Source: Pseudooceanicola sp.
GTDB lineage: Bacteria > Pseudomonadota > Alphaproteobacteria > Rhodobacterales > Rhodobacteraceae
Length of the DNA: 64,000 nt
Direction of reading: 5' to 3'
NCBI RefSeq assembly: GCF_041987405.1
Contig: NZ_JBHIWR010000005.1
Coordinates: 150,258 to 214,257, forward strand
The position numbers were made by a program, and so were the translations under genes. This document shows positions 2,022 through 57,700 of this stretch, one piece after another (the first letter of the stretch is position 1; every line of letters starts with the position of its first letter). Under the pieces are notes generated by a model that saw only the letters and a program-made list of their open reading frames with translations, was not told where the DNA came from and did no database searches.

Positions 2022-2175
2022 CCCCCTCTGTCCTTGCGCCTGAGATCGCTATCCCTTCGGCGGGCGCCTTTCGCGCCACTCTCCAGAGTTCGTCAACGGC
2101 AGGTCCCTTGGGCCTGAGAGTTTCCGGGGCGGTTGCTCCTTCGGCACCGGTGGATGACCGGTTCTCCCTGTCCGT
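2022..2175 (-). ncRNA. Tandem glycine riboswitch
   Basis: Minus strand has two aptamers, GGACAGGGAGA...GCCGAAGGAGCAACCGCCCCGGAAACTCTCAGGC...GGACC (~2098-2173) and CTCTGGAGAG...CGCCGAAGGGA...ATCTCAGGCGCAAGGACAGAGGG (~2024-2088), directly upstream of gcvT. Confidence 0.95.
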
Positions 2176-2214
2176 GGGGTCTGGTTAGCGCGGCGGCGCG
2201 GCCCGCGCAAGGGG

Positions 2215-2746: not shown

Positions 2747-2769
2747 AAGATGTGACTTGCATGCATCAT
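2747..2769. promoter_or_regulatory. Putative NsrR-type operator
   Basis: AAGATGTGACTTGCATGCATCAT = GATGTGA-N5-ATGCATC, compared with the published NsrR consensus gATGyAT-N5-ATrCATc; lies between the divergent Rrf2 and GGCT genes. Confidence 0.55.
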
Positions 2770-2792
2770 CAGGGATCGCGGAAAACGCGTAT

Positions 2793-3395
2793 ATGACATG
2801 GATCAAACAGGAGCCGGAATTGCCCCACGACCCTTTTTTCTTTGGATATGGCAGCCTCGTGAACACCGCGACCCATGTTTATGACCGCCATCACCGGGCG
2901 CGTCTGGACGGCTGGCGGCGGGTCTGGCGGCATACGCCGTTCCGGGAAATGGCGTTCCTGACGGCGGAGCCTTTCGAGGGCAGCTATATCGACGGGCTGA
3001 TCGCCGCCGTGCCCGGGGCAGACTGGGCGGCGCTGGACCTGCGCGAGACCGGCTATGACCGGGTGCCGCTGGACCGCGGGATCAGCCATGAGGCCGTGCA
3101 GGCGGGCGAGATCGCGGTCTATCATATCCCGGAGGGCAAACATGGCCCCGCCGACGGGGACCGGCCCATCCTGATGAGTTATCTCGACGTGGTGGTGCAG
3201 GGCTATCTGCAGGTCTTCGGCGCGGAGGGCGGGCAGCATTTCTTTGACACGACCGCCGGATGGGACGGGCCGATCCTGAACGACCGGGCCCAACCGCTCT
3301 ACCCCCGCGCGCAGTTGCTGCGGGAGGAGGAGACGAGCTTTGTCGACCGGGCGCTGGCGAAGATGGGCGCGAGGATTGTGGAGGCGGAGGGTTAG
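2793..3395 (+). CDS. Gamma-glutamylcyclotransferase family protein (ChaC/GGCT-like); start uncertain
   Basis: FFFGYGSLVN motif, ARLDGWRRVW, LDLRETGY (catalytic Glu region). Confidence 0.8.
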   Translation: MTWIKQEPELPHDPFFFGYGSLVNTATHVYDRHHRARLDGWRRVWRHTPFREMAFLTAEPFEGSYIDGLIAAVPGADWAALDLRETGYDRVPLDRGISHEAVQAGEIAVYHIPEGKHGPADGDRPILMSYLDVVVQGYLQVFGAEGGQHFFDTTAGWDGPILNDRAQPLYPRAQLLREEETSFVDRALAKMGARIVEAEG

Positions 3396-3444
3396 GGGGC
3401 GAGGCAGATCTGAATTAGTTCCTATAGGTCGATCTTCATAATCG

Positions 3445-3542
3445 AGGGCTGCGCCGACCCGCGGGGTGGCGCAATTGCGCCGCCCCAGGGGGGCGGGTCG
3501 GCGCAGCCCGGCGTTGCCGCCGGGCGGGACATTTGATCAAAG
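3445..3542. repeat. Multi-hairpin palindromic element, copy 1 (intergenic)
   Basis: 17-bp stem GGGCTGCGCCGACCCGC/GCGGGTCGGCGCAGCCC enclosing palindrome GGCGCAATTGCGCC, then CCCGGCG-TTGC-CGCCGGG; near-identical to 54430-54526. Confidence 0.9.
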
Positions 3543-3643
3543 CTCCAAGGCAATGCACGGATGTACATCCCGGCTGCTGCAGGCCGACCCAAGCTTAAAC
3601 CCCGCCGACAGCCCGCCTCACCACACCACCAACCAACCCATCC

Positions 3644-4513
3644 TCAAAACCACTGCCCCGGCTCCATCAGCCCCAGCTTCAGCAACTGACTGGAGGTCCA
3701 GTCGAAGGGGGCGGAGTTGTGCCAGCGGAAGGTGTCGATCTCGTAGGTTGATCCCGGGTTCCGCTTCAGCGCCTTGGCCGCCCGGAAGGAGCAGACCGTC
3801 GCCGTCAGGTTGTTGTGCCATTTGCAGGCGTAGGTGTTGTACTCTTCGTCGTTGAAGGTGAAATCCGGGTTCATCCGCAGCCCCTGACGGGCGCGGAAGA
3901 GGGAAATCCGGTCGATGCGGCGGCGATCCGGGGGCACGTGTTCCTCGAACCGCCATTTCAGCCCGCCGTAGAAATCCAGCTGCCGTTCCTTGGGGTACCC
4001 GTGGTTGCCCGGGTCCTTGCGGGCGAGCGCGTAGTAGCCGGACTTGTCCAGCCAGGCGTCGTCCAGTGCCACCGCATTCGGCGCTTGGTCGAGATCGCCG
4101 GCGTAGAGGTCGACGACATAGGTCAGCATGGCGTCGCGCCGCTCTTCGCCGTGGAAGGTCAGCATTTCGCCAACCGTGCGGTGTTCGCAGAAGGGATGCA
4201 GCAGGTATTCGGCGTTGTAGCAGTAGTAGAGCCAGGCGCCGACGGCGATATTGGCGGCGCGGGTCACCGCCTCTTCGATCCGGTCGCCGCGGTTGAGGTC
4301 GTAGTCCACGCGGGTGGTCCAGGGCTGGACGTCGCGGGCGATGCGAAAACTCGGCGGGGCCAGCAGGATGACGGATTTGAACCCGGCCTTGTGGTGGTGG
4401 CGCAGGGTGCTGTCGATCTCCACCTCGTCCTCGGCAAAGATCATCGCCGAGGGGCCCTTGGTGAACTCTGGCGGCCGGGCGTTCAGAAACGCGTCGAGGC
4501 TATTGAACTGCAT
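3644..4513 (-). CDS. Conserved hypothetical protein, possibly glycosyltransferase family 2-like fold
   Basis: 289-aa ORF, best reading of the interval, divergent from miaB; [14 protein letters not shown] and [11 protein letters not shown] segments recall GT2-like proteins of Rhodobacteraceae (recollection, not searched). Confidence 0.6.
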
Positions 4514-13606: not shown

Positions 13607-13657
13607 CTGCTGCTCCAACGGCTTCCTGACGGAGCGGTCTAACACCTATCGGAGCAC
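13607..13657 (+). ncRNA. SAM-SAH riboswitch
   Basis: CTGCTCCAACGGCTTCCTGACGGAGC...ACCTATCGGAGCA contains the CAACGGCUUCCUGRCG core of this Rhodobacterales class and overlaps the metK RBS. Confidence 0.85.
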
Positions 13658-19240: not shown

Positions 19241-19247
19241 TCCTAGC

Positions 19248-19341
19248 GGTGCGTGCAAGCACGCACCCTACGGGCGGGATGTAGGGTGCGTGCAAGCACG
19301 CACCCTACGGGCGGGATGTAGGGTGCGTGCTTGCACGCACC
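19248..19341. repeat. GTAG-family REP cluster: three palindromic units with a 37-bp period
   Basis: GTAGGGTGCGTGCTTGCACGCACC on minus (19248-19271) and plus (19318-19341), with a double-ended middle unit (19281-19308); identical GGGCGGGAT spacers. Confidence 0.9.
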
Positions 19342-19354
19342 GCCATGCACGCAG

Positions 19355-37624: not shown

Positions 37625-37701
37625 TGGTGACCCCGACAGGATTCGAACCTGTAACCTGCCCCTTAGGAGGGGGCTGCTCTATCCAGTTGAGCCACGGGGC
37701 C
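37625..37701 (-). tRNA. tRNA-Arg (anticodon CCT), CCA encoded
   Basis: Minus strand GGCCCCGTGGCTCAACTGGATAGAGCAGCCCCCTCCTAAGGGGCAGGTTACAGGTTCGAATCCTGTCGGGGTCACCA folds as a 77-nt cloverleaf. Confidence 0.97.
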
Positions 37702-47327: not shown

Positions 47328-47384
47328 TCCGGCAGCGGGACACCCCTCCCCAACGAGGGGCGTATGACTGGAAGGTTACTACCA
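47328..47384 (+). ncRNA. Probable serC leader RNA element
   Basis: Nested stems TCCGG/CTGGA and ACACCCCT/AGGGGCGT immediately before the serC ATG; a serC 5' element is known in alphaproteobacteria, but no covariance match was run. Confidence 0.5.
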
Positions 47385-52571: not shown

Positions 52572-54767
52572 TTACTCCAGCACAACCTCCACCCGCGCGG
52601 ACCGCCCCGCCCCGTCGATCACCGCGATCTCGGTGAACCCCCGCCCGAGACCCTGCAACAGCAGCTCCCGTCCACGCGCGCCGGTCTGCATCGGGCGACC
52701 GTTGACGAGCCATGTGAACGGCGCCACCCCGTCGCGGACCCGCACCGGCACCACGCCGGCCGCGGCCAGCACCGCGCCATCGGGCGGGAAGGCGACCTGG
52801 GGCAGGTCTCGGTCTTCCACCACGCCGCGCGGACGGAAGCGTTTCAGCGGTTCCGGCAGGAGGGTCGCACCGACCAGCAGGGTTTCCGGGGGCGGCGGCG
52901 GCGGTGTCTCCAGCGTGGGCTTCAGGCGACCGAAGGCCTCGAAAAGGATCGGCGCGGCGAGGTCCCCGCCGAAGGCGCCGGGCACGGGCGTCCCGTCCGG
53001 GCGGCCCATCCAGACGCCGATCACATGCGCCCCGTCATAGCCGATGGCCCAGGCATCGCGGTGGCCGTAGCTGGTGCCGGTCTTGTAGGCCAGCCGGTTG
53101 GCGGGCGCGCCGGGCGGCGGGGCGAGACCGGCGAGGATATGTCCGACCTGCCAGGCCGAGGCGCGGGAGATCAGGCGCGGCGCGTCCACCTCCGCCACCG
53201 CGCGCCAGTGCAGGGGCCGGGTCACACCGCCATTGGCGAGGCTGGCATACAGCTGCGTCAGATCGGTGAGGGTCAGCCCCACCCCGCCCAGGGCCACGGC
53301 GAGGCCGGGCTTTCCGGTAAGGTCCGGGCGCGTGCCGGCGCGGCGCAGCGCAGCCATGAGGTTTTGCGGGCCAAGTGCTTCGGTCAGTTGCACGGCGGGC
53401 AGGTTGAGCGACAGGCGCAGGGCGTCGGCGATGCGGACCTCGCCCCGGAATTCGCCATCGAAGTTCTGCGGCGCGTAGCCGTCGAACTCCATCGGGCGGT
53501 CGGCGATCAGGGTTTCGGGATGGGCCAGACCCTGATCGAAGGCGAGGCCGTAGATCAGCGGCTTCAGGGTCGAGCCGGGCGAGCGCAGGGCTTGGGTCAT
53601 GTCGACAAAGCCCTGCCCCCGGTCGGTCAGCCCGGCAGAGCCGACGGAGGCCAGGATCTCTCCGTTACGGTGATCGGCCACAAGGATCGCGATGGATAGC
53701 CGGTCAGAGCGATTGCGCAGGCTGCGGGTGGCGAGGTCTTCGAGGCTGGCTTGCAGGGTGGCGTCGAGGGTCAGGGTCTGGAGCGGCGCATCGGGGGCTT
53801 CGGACAGTGCGCGGTCGGTCAGATGCGGGGCCAGCGCGGGGAACGGGCGGCGCGCACGGGGGGCGGTGTCTGTCATGGCGGCCCGGGCTTCGGCGGGAGT
53901 CAGGATATTTTCGGTGACCATACGCGCCAGGACGCGGTCGCGTGCAGCGGCGGCCTGCAGCGGGTGACGGTCGGGACGCCGGGCCTCGGGCGATTGCGGC
54001 AGGGCGACCAGCAGCGCGGCCTCGGCCGGGGTCAGGCGTTTCGGTTCCTTGCCGAAATAGGCGAGGGTCGCGGCGCGGATGCCTTCCAGGTTGCCGCCCA
54101 TGGGGGCGAGGTGGAGGTAGAGGGTCAGGATCTCCGCCTTGGTCATCCGCCGTTCGAGGGCGAGGGCCAGGCGGATCTGGCGCAGTTTGCCGGACCAGCT
54201 GCCGGTGCCGCTGTCCTCCAGCAGGCGGGCAGTCTGCATCGTCAGGGTAGAGCCACCGGAGACGATGCGCCCGGCCCAGAGCGACTGCCAGGCGGCACGG
54301 GCCATGGCGTAGGGATCGACGCCGGGGTGGGTCAGAAAGCGGCGGTCCTCGTAGGCCATGAGCATGGCGAGGTAGAGGGGGTCGACGCCCTTTGACGTGA
54401 TCGGAGCAGGTTGATTGCGGTTGTCGTCAAGGGCTGCGCCGTCCCGCGGGGTGGCGCATATGCGCCGCCCCAGGGGGGCGGGACGGCGCAGCCCGGCCTG
54501 CGGCCGGGCGGAACACTCTATCAAAGGTGCACCAAGAACTTTTCCTGGCCGGAGGTTTGCCATCGAACCCGCCCCGACCCGCAACCGCCAGCGTCCATCC
54601 GCCACCGTATAGACACGCAGCAGATCGCCGTCCCGATCGCGCACCTCGGCTGAGGTATCCAACAGAAGCGGCGGCAGGTCCGTCCGGTCGATCCACAGAT
54701 CGACCCGGTCCCGCGTCAGCGCCCCGGCCCAAAGGACCAGGACAAGGGCCAGCAGCGCCCGTGTCAT
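52572..54767 (-). CDS. pbpC: Penicillin-binding protein 1C with an apparent in-frame ~59-aa insertion
   Basis: ATGA overlap with the A2M stop; YEDRRFLTHPGVD, SGGSTLTMQTARLL transglycosylase motifs; SPGSTLKP, YKTGTS transpeptidase motifs; C-terminal BiPBP region. Confidence 0.93.
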   Translation of the reverse strand: MTRALLALVLVLWAGALTRDRVDLWIDRTDLPPLLLDTSAEVRDRDGDLLRVYTVADGRWRLRVGAGSMANLRPGKVLGAPLIECSARPQAGLRRPAPLGRRICATPRDGAALDDNRNQPAPITSKGVDPLYLAMLMAYEDRRFLTHPGVDPYAMARAAWQSLWAGRIVSGGSTLTMQTARLLEDSGTGSWSGKLRQIRLALALERRMTKAEILTLYLHLAPMGGNLEGIRAATLAYFGKEPKRLTPAEAALLVALPQSPEARRPDRHPLQAAAARDRVLARMVTENILTPAEARAAMTDTAPRARRPFPALAPHLTDRALSEAPDAPLQTLTLDATLQASLEDLATRSLRNRSDRLSIAILVADHRNGEILASVGSAGLTDRGQGFVDMTQALRSPGSTLKPLIYGLAFDQGLAHPETLIADRPMEFDGYAPQNFDGEFRGEVRIADALRLSLNLPAVQLTEALGPQNLMAALRRAGTRPDLTGKPGLAVALGGVGLTLTDLTQLYASLANGGVTRPLHWRAVAEVDAPRLISRASAWQVGHILAGLAPPPGAPANRLAYKTGTSYGHRDAWAIGYDGAHVIGVWMGRPDGTPVPGAFGGDLAAPILFEAFGRLKPTLETPPPPPPETLLVGATLLPEPLKRFRPRGVVEDRDLPQVAFPPDGAVLAAAGVVPVRVRDGVAPFTWLVNGRPMQTGARGRELLLQGLGRGFTEIAVIDGAGRSARVEVVLE
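54430..54526. repeat. Multi-hairpin palindromic element, copy 2 (inside pbpC coding sequence)
   Basis: Aligns with 3445-3542, and substitutions in all three stems are compensatory. Confidence 0.9.
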
Positions 54768-57700
54768 TCGCTGATCGTCACGCGGCCCGCGTCGGTCCGG
54801 GCGCGGTAGCGCGGGCGGTACATGTCCTCGACCGTGGCGGCGGGGTGGTGGTAGCTGCCCGGCGTGATGGCGCGGACGATATAGGCCAGTTGGAAGGGCT
54901 CGTCGGACCGCCATTCGATTGCCGTCAGGAACCGGTCGGAGCGGAATTCGCTATGCTCGCCCTCCTGCGGTTTCAGCCAGTCGAGGGCGCGGATGTCGCC
55001 CGCGCGCAGCAGGTTGGGGTTGTCGATCTCGAACCCGGCCGGCAGCGGGTCGTCCACCATCAGCCGCGCGCCGGTCTTCTCGAAGGGCACCACGGTCAGG
55101 ACGGTGACCAGACGATCCCCCTGCGCCACCTGCGCGGGATCGACCCTGTCACCCTCGGTCGTGAAATATTCGCGTTTGATCGCATAGCCATAGCCCCCCG
55201 CCTCGACCGGGGTGGCGGTTACGCCGATGGTGGTCAGGGTGACATCTGTCTGCGCGCTCCCCTCGTTGCGGATCGCCATGGGGGTAAAGGCCTGCGCCGC
55301 GGTCGTGCGGACGAAGGGGCCGGTGACCGGCGCGCCGTTGAGCGAGAGGTTCGCTGCGACCGGATCGTCGATCAGGGCCTTGGCGGCCAGCAGGGTCCAG
55401 GCGCTTTCCTGCGTGGACATCGGGCCGTCGCGGCTGACCACCCGCGAGATCAGGGATTGCCGGTCAATGGCGGTGGAGCCGGATTCGACGGCGAGCGAAA
55501 GAACCCCGGCCGTGTCGCGCAGGTTGGTTCCATAGTCAGCGCGGAACACCCGCTCCTCCGGCGTTTCCTGGCGTTTGGCCAACATTTTGCCCGCGATGGC
55601 GAACATGGCATCGGCGCGGGTCTGGTCGCCATACATGGCAAGCGCCGCGCCAAGCTGGGCGGCGGCGAGCGGCGTGGCAAAATCTTCGCCCTTCACGTCG
55701 GAATAATAGCGCAGGTCGCCCATATTGGCCGCCCCTTCGCGGGCGAGGACCATGAGGGCATAGGCCACGTCCTCTCCGCCGCCGTTGGTGGAGGCGTCGA
55801 AATCCGGGGCATAGTTGACCCGGTTGCGCAGGTTGTCCACCGCCATCTGGAAGGCGAGCGGGTTGACCCCGTGCCCCTCGGCGCGGGCGCGCGACAGGAA
55901 GTCGGTCACATAGGCATCCAGCCAGAAATCACCTGACGCCGCGCGCCAGAGACCGAAGGCGCCATTGGTCGCCTGCCGGGTCAGGATACGGTCGACGGCC
56001 TGGCTGATCCGTTCCTCCACCTGGCCGGGCTGGGCGAGGCCCATGGCCTGGGCCACCGACGACAAGTAGAGCAGCGGCATGGCCTTTGACGTAATCTGCT
56101 CCGTGCAGCCGTAGGGATAGCGGCTGAGCGTGGCCAGCAGCGCGGGCGCATCGACCCGGGCGAGCGGCCCGGCGGAAACCACCGCCTCCCCCGTCCCGGC
56201 GCGGTACCCGGCGAAGACATTGCTGTCGAGGGTGAAGGTATCCCCTGCCGCAAGGGTGAAGCGGCGGGTTGTCGCGACCTCCGGATCGTTGACGCGGACC
56301 GGCATGGTCAGCGTCTTGGTCAGCTGTTTGCCCGCCGGTGTGGTCAGGGCCACGGTGATTGCGTGATCCCCGGTGTCGGTCGCAGTAAAGGGGATGCGAT
56401 AGCTCTGCTTGGCCTTCTCGCCGAGGTCGAAGCCGGAGGGCACAGCGCCGGTCAGGGTCACCCCATTGGCCGCCACGTCCAGCCCCATGCGTCCCGTCGG
56501 TCCGGTGGCATGGACGATCTCCAGCAACATGGATGATTGATCGCCCGGCTGCAGGAAGCGCGGGAGCGAGGCGGTGACGACCACCGGGTCGCGGACCAGC
56601 ACATCGGCCTCCGCCGCGCCGACGCCGGATTTGCTCCAGGCGACGGCCATCAGGCGGACGGTGCCGTTGAATTCGGGCATGTCGAAGGTGACCTGCGCCG
56701 TGCCGTCAGGGCCGATGGTCAGCGGGCCGGTGAAATAGGCGACGAGGTCCTCGGTCGGCGGGGGAGACTGCAACCCGGCCGAAGAGGCCGCGTCGCCGCC
56801 GGAGCGGACCCGGCCCATGGCGCCCTGGGTGCTGTCGATCAACCGGCCATAGAGGTCGCGGATATCCATTCCGAGCCGCTGCTGGCCGAAGTAATGGCCC
56901 TGCGGATCGGGCGTTTCAAAGCCGGTGAGGTTGAGGATACCGACGTCGACGGCGGCGACCGTGACATAGGCCTCTTCACCCGAAGTGATGCCATTGACCT
57001 GGACCGTGGCGGTCAGCGGTTCACGCGGGTCAGAGGTTTCAGATGTTTCGAAACTGACAGACAGCGCCTTCTCCGCCGGGTCTACCTTGGCATGGCTCAG
57101 CCCCATGGCGCGGGTCGGCATCTGGCCTGCGGGCGCATCCATCGGACGCATGACGGAGGCGGTGACATAAGCGCCGGTGCCCCAGTCCTCGGTCACGGGA
57201 AGGTCGATCAGGTTTTCGCCCTCGACGACCTCGACCGCCTTCATGTCGATCAGCCTGTTGGCGACGACCGTCACCAGCGCGGTCCCCGCATGACGCGGCA
57301 CGAGGCGAAGCTGCGCGGTGTCGCCCTGTCGGTACTCCTCGGCGTCCAGAGACAGCTCCAGCATATCCGGCGTGGTCGTGGCGTCGGCGGGGGCGTACCA
57401 GCCGGCGTGGAAATCCTCGCTCGCAGCAATGTAGGTGCCAGCGGAGCTCTCCACGACGATCTCGTAACGGCCCCAGTCCGTGGGGGCTTCGACTTCCACC
57501 GGGTCGGTGCCGAGCGTGACGGTGCCGGAGGCGACCTCGGCCCGCGTCGTGTAGGGCTCCCACTGCCAGTTACCGTATTGGCGATACCATTGGTAGCGGG
57601 TGGTGACGCGGTTGACGGTCCAGGTGACCAGCATCTCCTGCGGGGCGAGTGCGGCGTTCAGCGCGATGAGCGAGAAGCGGGCCGTTTCACCCTCCGGCAG

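Follow-up and report, generated by a model that had tools for sequence, protein, structure and literature searches.

A probable REP/REPIN-like family of dispersed palindromic DNA repeats in the Roseobacter group

In this study, we analysed a stretch of 64 kb from a Pseudooceanicola sp. genome (hereafter the window), in which an earlier note had described two copies of a palindromic element of about 97 bp. Both copies are present where they had been placed, at 3445-3542 (copy A) and 54430-54526 (copy B), with about 88% identity in a global alignment and 93% identity over the central 71 nt in a repeat search of the window. The 22-base core pattern GGGGTGGCGCANNTGCGCCGCCCC occurs at only two places in the 64 kb, which are copies A and B, and none is expected from 100 shuffles. 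Copy A lies between convergent genes, as had been reported, and copy B, in a point absent from the earlier note, lies in frame inside pbpC. The features at the two loci are as follows.

2757 to 3395, forward strand: convergent neighbour of copy A, an open reading frame (ORF) of 212 aa with a weak GGACT match; its stop is 49 nt ahead of the element.
3445 to 3539, forward strand: copy A in full, AGGGC...GCCGGGCGGGAC followed by the tail ATTTGATCA, which is specific to the lineage, from an nhmmer profile match (3445-3529) and from contig divergence in the organism's own samples.
3446 to 3462, forward strand: 5' arm GGGCTGCGCCGACCCGC of the 17-bp outer stem, partner 3493-3509, from the fold and from two pairs that covary in alignment A3 (10:66 and 17:59); A3 comprises 54 full-length copies of other genomes.
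3451 to 3472, forward strand: 5' unit GCGCCGACCCGCGGGGTGGCGC, a 22-nt near-palindrome inverted with respect to the 3' unit, read from the sequence and at least 90% conserved in 54 copies.
3463 to 3472 with 3477 to 3486, forward strand: inner stem of 10 bp with one T.G, and a 6-nt bulge in the hairpin, from the minimum-energy fold.
3473 to 3476, forward strand: loop, AATT in copy A and ATAT in copy B, variable and non-palindromic in other copies.
3477 to 3504, forward strand: 3' unit, 28-nt core GCGCCGCCCC-AG-GGGGGCGGG-T-CGGCGC, which is also able to fold by itself (CCGCCCC/GGGGCGG), from the pattern scan; it stands without the 5' unit in the type-3 copies described below.
3507 to 3524, forward strand: small 3' hairpin CCCGGCG-TTGC-CGCCGGG, whose first CCC also belongs to the outer stem, from covarying A3 pairs 73:81 and 74:80.
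3644 to 4513, reverse strand: convergent neighbour of copy A, an ORF of 289 aa with a weak glycosyltransferase-2 match; its stop is about 104 nt past the element.
52572 to 54767, reverse strand: pbpC (PBP1C, 731 aa), with copy B in frame by translation; its ATG overlaps the stop of an upstream alpha-2-macroglobulin-like ORF (ATGA).
54399 to 54575, reverse strand: 59-codon insert missing in homologues, from a protein alignment, consisting of copy B between two unique stretches of about 37 and 41 nt, about 78 nt in all.
54430 to 54526, forward strand: copy B, whose family-shared part stops at about 54514, from the profile match and from loose contig ends at 54428-54430 and 54497-54514.

When the forward strand is folded as RNA, the 5' and 3' units pair over 27 bp, and the folding energies are -74.3 kcal/mol for copy A and -76.1 kcal/mol for copy B (z = -5.7 and -5.9 against shuffles); the reverse strand of both copies folds nearly as stably and far better than shuffles. 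In the organism's own samples, other copies cease to resemble copy A ahead of 3443-3445 and past 3538-3539. The end of the family, when genera are compared, is at ...GCCGGGCGGGAC (3530), and likeness as far as 3538/3539 is found within the organism's own samples. The ending ATCAAAG that had been described is indeed shared by copies A and B, but TTTGA/TCAAA stands in the 3' flank of only 8 of 68 copies elsewhere. The sequence of copy B is confirmed by a 3709-bp contig from run X15 that covers 54150-54850 with no differences.

Copy number was read from Logan contigs of the public metagenome runs that contain the window, that is, the organism's own samples. Contig pieces matching 3444-3539 numbered 84 in run X1 and 74 in run X4, and the depth of each element-bearing piece matched that of the unique flanks, at about 10x in X1 and about 49x in X4, indicating that the pieces come from the same organism. 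In X1 and X4 these pieces lead into at least 19 different left flanks, and the same picture was seen in X12, X14, and X15, so that the element is present in more than the two copies first recognised. Relative to the unique flanks, the depth of the 5' half is about 20-25x and that of the 3' half up to about 90x, a figure inflated by overlapping unitigs. This suggests that the organism holds tens of full copies and further copies with the 3' part alone.

Outside this organism, a scan with the pattern GCGCCGCCCCNNGGGGGCGGGNCGGCGC, which fixed most 3'-arm positions and covered one genome per species, found the 28-nt core in at least 118 stretches of at least 69 species-level genomes. Among the matches listed, all carriers belong to the Roseobacter group or Rhodobacteraceae; they cover more than 15 named genera, including Pseudooceanicola, Maritimibacter, Ruegeria, Leisingera, Sulfitobacter, Aliiroseovarius, Marivita, Shimia, Oceanicola, Cribrihabitans, Pseudoruegeria, Poseidonocella, Actibacterium, Tritonibacter, and Tropicibacter, and many metagenome-assembled genomes (MAGs). 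A profile built from full-length copies matched 149 places in about 1 Mb of fetched loci, each chosen for carrying the core pattern, and 84 of these matches, from 44 genomes, are full length. In the plasmid collection there were only a few Leisingera matches, all of them without annotation. Rfam gave no match at 3445-3542 or 54430-54526 at gathering thresholds, and at E<=10 the best scores were at most 20 bits against cut-offs of 35-100 bits, with nothing meaningful among them; this agrees with the earlier view that the element belongs to no named family. We found no paper tying REP, REPIN, or RAYT to repeats of Roseobacter or Rhodobacteraceae. With no Rfam match, no paper, and plasmid records devoid of annotation, the family, which is real and well supported, is apparently undescribed so far.

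The cross-genus consensus reads AGGGC-a-GCGcCG-n-CCCGCGGGGtGGCGC-(loop)-GCGCCGCCCC-at-GGGGGCGGG-t-CGGCGC-t-GCCCGGC...GCCGGGCGGgac, and it is made of a 22-nt near-palindromic 5' unit, a slightly longer inverted 3' unit of 28 nt, and a terminal hairpin that differs by subfamily. The flanks carry less than 0.6 bit at any 5' position and about 0 bit past the 3' end, from which it follows that the ends of the element are sharp and that no target motif is visible. RNAalifold favours a three-way-junction alternative for the interior, and the invariant columns fit either fold equally. Beyond this standard form, the family is modular. Type 2 has its units split by about 72 nt holding a conserved TGGCAGTTTAT, and the pairing between units is kept across this distance (T:A in six copies, A:T in six, and G:T in one). 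Type-2 copies beside ribosomal-protein genes were considered as a leader or small RNA, and this was rejected, as these copies are made of the two usual units with a spacer in the middle and lie between convergent genes. One orthologous type-2 copy is kept between convergent genes, beside a highly conserved gene block, in Leisingera and Tritonibacter (L002, L007, L029, L054, and L103). Type 3 consists of the 3' unit and the terminal hairpin without the 5' unit, and in strain CCMM004 and O. granulosus it is often repeated in tandem about every 215 nt. Direct tandem arrays of this kind lie at L015:563-1046, L118:161-432 and 2291-2565, L039:5258-5529, and L014:1251-1528 in CCMM004 and in L043 of O. 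granulosus, and each of the repeats of about 215 nt carries an additional GCGGCGCG...CGCCGC palindrome and a G-run of variable length. In type 4 the element is set within a longer palindrome. In four further copies from different genomes (L052:3992-4111, L026:942-1060, L047:1735-1855, and L105:4978-5088) an extra small hairpin is nested exactly at the CCCC/GGGG tip of the 3' unit; nested hairpins are exemplified by GTCGCCATTGG...CCAATGGCGAC and, in the window's organism, by GTCACGCCAAAGGCGTGC, and a loose contig end at 3485 in that organism's own samples falls at the same position. Judging from these sequences, the CCCC/GGGG tip of the 3' unit is probably an insertion hot spot or the seat of an optional module. 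Local tandem duplications also occur, as do internal deletions and duplications between GCGCC repeats.

The two copies had been said to covary in every stem. This holds for the outer stem (3457:3498, A:T in copy A versus T:A in copy B) and for the third stem (G:C versus C:G), and both of these compensatory pairs also covary among the 54 copies of other genomes. It does not hold for the inner palindrome: what had been read there as a difference that preserves pairing, AATT versus ATAT, is the 4-nt loop at 3473-3476, and it is not covariation because loops elsewhere are non-palindromic (AAAA, ATAA, GATA, and AATC). Likewise, the view that structure rather than sequence is maintained is half right, as most stem positions are near-invariant over 44 genomes and only four to five pairs covary. 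In A3, 95.2% of the cells form standard pairs versus 91.3% when the partners are shuffled, with 0 of 500 shuffles as high as observed, and sliding the partners by one to three columns leaves 38-51% paired. Two-sided changes are found at four pairs, namely 10:66 (AU 26, UA 10, GU 7, CG 3), 17:59 (AU 22, GU 13, UA 9, GC 2, with TT in 6), 73:81 (CG 47, UA 5), and 74:80 (GC 32, CG 17, UA 3, AU 1). The search pattern fixed A3 columns 38-47, 50-58, and 60-65, whose partner columns can show one-sided change only, and the invariance of these 3'-arm columns is thus due to how the copies were selected. The 5' unit lies outside the pattern, and its conservation of at least 90% in 54 copies from about 40 genomes is free of that selection bias.

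Two further results escape this selection bias. In a subfamily from MAG J06614_7, recovered by the profile search (L104:5064-5146 and L057:4984-5067), GCGCC/GGCGC has become GCCCCC/GGGGGC in all four arms with every pairing kept, a concerted variant showing that arm complementarity is re-established in one unit. Three Aliiroseovarius species share an orthologous site (L048 vs L065) at which the immediate flanks are 49-69% identical and the element 83%; there, G:T has become T:A, and the small stem carries changes that are compensated. In 41 of 54 copies the T.G at 3467:3482 is kept, and wobbles on the forward strand number 49 versus 16 A.C or C.A, which would be wobbles on the reverse strand; this sequence asymmetry hints that the element may be strand specific. 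Covariation in a DNA palindrome is, in itself, no demonstration of RNA function, since selection on a single-stranded DNA (ssDNA) hairpin, template-switch correction, and replacement by other copies give the same pattern. Template-switch correction of quasi-palindromes is well established. For a purely selfish repeat, so high a degree of sequence conservation over many genera is unusual, and it could be a sign of a host function.

The genomic context of the copies was summarised with a crude GC3-based ORF finder, by which 79 of the 84 full-length copies were called intergenic. Four of the five in-gene calls proved to be wrong-frame ORF artefacts on inspection, leaving the pbpC copy as the one copy of 84 that is truly in a gene. 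Intergenic copies with both neighbours called (69 in all) lie between convergent genes in 32 cases, between co-directional genes in 23 (antisense to the genes) and 12 (sense), and between divergent genes in two. The side with the small hairpin faces the 3' end of a gene in 60 of 74 cases. This distribution at gene 3' ends is the classic REP pattern and, together with the occurrence of both orientations, it argues against an RNA specific to the transcript strand. The structured RNA that had been offered as one option is accordingly disfavoured, with 23 antisense and 12 sense copies in co-directional pairs. Orientation has no consistent link to local GC skew: 32 of 84 copies agree with it (nominal p = 0.04, in the opposite sense), as do 19 of 42 where the skew is strong. 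At 3300-3750 there is no terminator-like site on either strand and no promoter consensus at copy A; past the stems the sequence reads GGCG... on one strand and CTCGATT... on the other, with no T/U run. The element is present with varied flanks in unstranded contigs from metatranscriptomes and probable single-organism RNA runs, RNA libraries X20, X23, and X24 among them, which is consistent with, though not decisive for, co-transcription in 3' untranslated regions; metatranscriptomes X17-X19, from the window's own study, gave no RNA coverage of the locus.

The pbpC copy deserves separate consideration. The product retains intact Pfam Transgly, Transpeptidase, and BiPBP_C domains, its homologues are 672-680 aa long, and the frame is open throughout the 59-codon insert. 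The unique 37 and 41 nt beside copy B are not common to other copies. In Pseudooceanicola onchidii, exactly this point of PBP1C, after WRLRV, carries an insert of 48 residues (L001:3204-3347) that is unrelated to the one in the window. That gene was considered as an empty site for copy B, and it does not serve as one, its own 48-aa insert there being different and unalignable. Distinct inserts at one point of PBP1C make the linker seem tolerant of insertion, and from the sequences compared it seems to be an insertion-tolerant hot spot in this clade. Copy B demonstrates that a coding gene can accept the element in a tolerant linker, with the reading frame continuing through it, and this cell-wall synthase offers a natural case of in-frame tolerance of a palindromic repeat. 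In-frame coding insertion is not a habit of the family, as the pbpC copy alone qualifies among 84 copies.

Comparison with relatives bears on mobility. Orthologous loci of relatives (L120-L124) and the P. onchidii pbpC locus (L001) gave no profile match at E<=10; in the four relatives' loci compared, P0003 homologues are 78-86% identical, and L123 has both genes that flank copy A, with a spacer of 85 nt versus 248 nt in the window. The absence of the copies from relatives' loci indicates that copies are gained or lost over the time in which species diverge. Other copies are retained at the orthologous place in different species, as in the Aliiroseovarius trio. The orthologous spacers of L120-L124 have no element and are too diverged for a junction to be placed. 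No empty-site joints were found in the related metagenome runs X12, X14, X15, and X16, and there was no empty site among the fetched loci, each of which had been chosen for the core pattern. A search for the partner enzyme, made in all six reading frames of about 1 Mb surrounding 149 copies, gave no HUH plus Y..NP motif, and the ORFs between copy pairs include no transposase and no Y1 domain. Recurrent neighbouring genes were considered as mobilisers and set aside, being only ABC transporters, dehydrogenases, LepA, RF, and similar housekeeping genes. The element has no terminal GTAG or CGTC; it opens with AGGGC and closes with GGGCGGGAC. Being multi-copy, located at gene ends, and absent from relatives' orthologous sites, it is in keeping with the non-autonomous REP-like palindromic repeat that had been proposed.

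The element comes closest to the REP/BIME elements of Enterobacteriaceae and to the REPINs of Pseudomonas, which are mobilised by RAYT transposases (TnpA-REP, Y1 HUH) (PMC3116915; PMC3337134; PMC5581495). Like these, the element has short GC-rich imperfect palindromic units whose inverted doublets give a long hairpin, it is found in tens of extragenic copies per genome at gene 3' ends, and its arrangements are mosaic or clustered; its split, truncated, tandem, and nested forms recall the modularity of BIMEs, and single copies persist vertically across species, as those of REPs and REPINs do. Unlike REPs and REPINs, it has no GTAG-type 5' tag, its units differ in length (22 nt versus 28 nt, the longer one having a 6-nt bulge), and it has an extra variable hairpin. 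In addition, its clusters are direct rather than alternating, the family is common to many genera, and no RAYT was found in the loci around its copies. The REP-associated RAYT groups 2 and 3 have been described from Enterobacteria and Pseudomonas. As a rule a RAYT (PF01797) is encoded by a single-copy gene of the genome that carries its repeats, and the repeats typically stand beside that gene. The GTAG/CGTC REP superfamilies are defined by a terminal tag and a CCA tail, with an 8-9-bp stem that starts with A/T pairs and a loop of 4-5 nt; those with the CGTC tag are common among alpha-proteobacteria (Di Nocera et al., 2013; PMC3733652). The present element resembles them as a small palindromic repeat of alpha-proteobacteria that often forms dimers, but their defining features are absent and its stems are GC-only, of 10 and 17 bp. 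Two other comparisons are instructive. With intrinsic (Rho-independent) terminators the element shares GC-rich hairpins just past stop codons, frequently between convergent genes; it differs in having no U-tract, in near-identical copies across loci and genera, and in its modular multi-hairpin form. Rickettsia palindromic elements (RPE) are reportedly selfish palindromes located in frame within protein-coding genes, as Ogata and colleagues are said to have found in 2000. Copy B is like them, a palindromic repeat of about 97 bp read in frame in pbpC with the protein domains intact, but it is unrelated to them in sequence, and its family is overwhelmingly intergenic, with only one copy in 84 inside a gene.

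Taken together, these observations make it probable that the element is a REP/REPIN-like family of dispersed palindromic DNA repeats in the Roseobacter group (Rhodobacteraceae sensu lato), that is, a known kind of bacterial repeat in a new example and not a new kind of system. The units are short (22 and 28 nt, within the 20-40 nt of REP units), present in tens of copies and mostly extragenic, and the inverted pair forms a long hairpin, as a REPIN doublet does, with pairing kept in 54 copies. The likeness lies in units, doublet, and distribution; the tag of the RAYT-mobilised class is lacking, and membership in that class is putative and unproven. Three other explanations were weighed. That the copies are functional RNA hairpins of 3' ends, either bidirectional or U-tract-less terminators or mRNA stabilisers, whose structure is selected by the host and whose spread is secondary, would fit a distribution that is strongly enriched at the 3' ends of genes and in convergent intervals and nearly absent from divergent regions, the very stable folds of both strands, and the element contigs in RNA libraries X20, X23, and X24; moreover, the empty spacer of L123 bears a GC hairpin of its own, GTCCCGGC...GCCGGGAC. 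However, the stems are followed by no T/U run and match no terminator consensus, sequence identity is far above what a terminator needs, one copy lies within a coding gene that is still open, tandem and nested forms occur, and the RNA contigs are unstranded with DNA carry-over possible. We consider this explanation unlikely.

A domesticated protein-binding DNA site, recognised by a nucleoid-associated protein, gyrase, or a dedicated hairpin binder and held by purifying selection across the Roseobacter group, would account for a 5' unit conserved outside the search pattern, for units that stay alike while spacers and flanks diverge, and for the strand asymmetry (T.G in 41 of 54 copies; wobbles 49 vs 16). 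We think it rather improbable, as no partner protein was found, copy number and positions differ between relatives, orientation is unlinked to local GC skew, and the conservation can equally be explained by gene conversion or recent spread. A related and speculative reading, to which we give a small chance, is that the units, rather than being carried along by a RAYT-type system, are recognition sites of a Roseobacter-wide strand-specific protein that binds or cuts hairpins, a pairing of repeat and enzyme that would be new in alpha-proteobacteria, or that the element has been domesticated for a host role at convergent gene ends; it is allowed by units near-invariant in dozens of genera beside decaying spacers and flanks, by the conserved T.G, and by the lack of a GTAG/CGTC tag. 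Finally, the MITE option of the earlier note, taken here in the classical sense of an insertion sequence deletion derivative that is moved by a DDE transposase acting on terminal inverted repeats and leaves target-site duplications, draws on the size of about 90-100 bp, the multiple copies, and a presence that differs between relatives. It is very improbable, given that the ends AGGGCAGCGCCG... and ...GCCGGGCGGGAC are not mutual inverted repeats, that the flanks carry about 0 information and no duplicated target, and that no transposase lies near the copies examined.

In its anatomy, as the sequences show, the element has two GC-rich palindromic units in inverted orientation that can pair into a long nested hairpin, with a variable small hairpin after them. 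If it is a REP/REPIN-like repeat, its life cycle may be pictured as follows. New sites would be gained as DNA, probably by means of a putative trans-acting enzyme that recognises the ssDNA hairpin. Copies would then survive where they do the least harm, just past stop codons and above all between convergent genes, and the resident ones are probably co-transcribed in 3' untranslated regions, where they may stabilise RNA or block read-through. REPs of enterobacteria are known to act as RNA-stabilising or read-through-blocking hairpins. The upkeep of pairing may reflect selection for a foldable hairpin, or hairpin-templated correction combined with gene conversion among copies.

The finding is useful but ordinary and opens no long-standing question. 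For annotation, the family with its split, truncated, and nested variants accounts for many orphan GC-rich hairpins in Roseobacter-group genomes, and apparent covariation in such palindromes is not to be taken as evidence for an RNA gene. Short-read assemblies are broken by the element, and Logan contigs stop within it. The family also extends REP/REPIN-like repeats to an ecologically important marine clade without a known mobilising enzyme. The window itself contains, at 19246-19342, three tandem perfect palindromes GTAG-GGTGCGTGC-AA-GCACGCACC-CTAC with the spacer GGGCGGGAT, a classical GTAG-type REP cluster distinct from copies A and B; going by its sequence, the cluster suggests a second REP family in this genome, perhaps the one served by a RAYT. 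Matches above the Rfam gathering score in the window, which are in keeping with an origin in Rhodobacterales, comprise a glycine riboswitch (2091-2179, reverse strand), a SAM/SAH riboswitch (13607-13656, forward strand), a serC leader (47333-47384, forward strand), and a tRNA (37628-37701, reverse strand).
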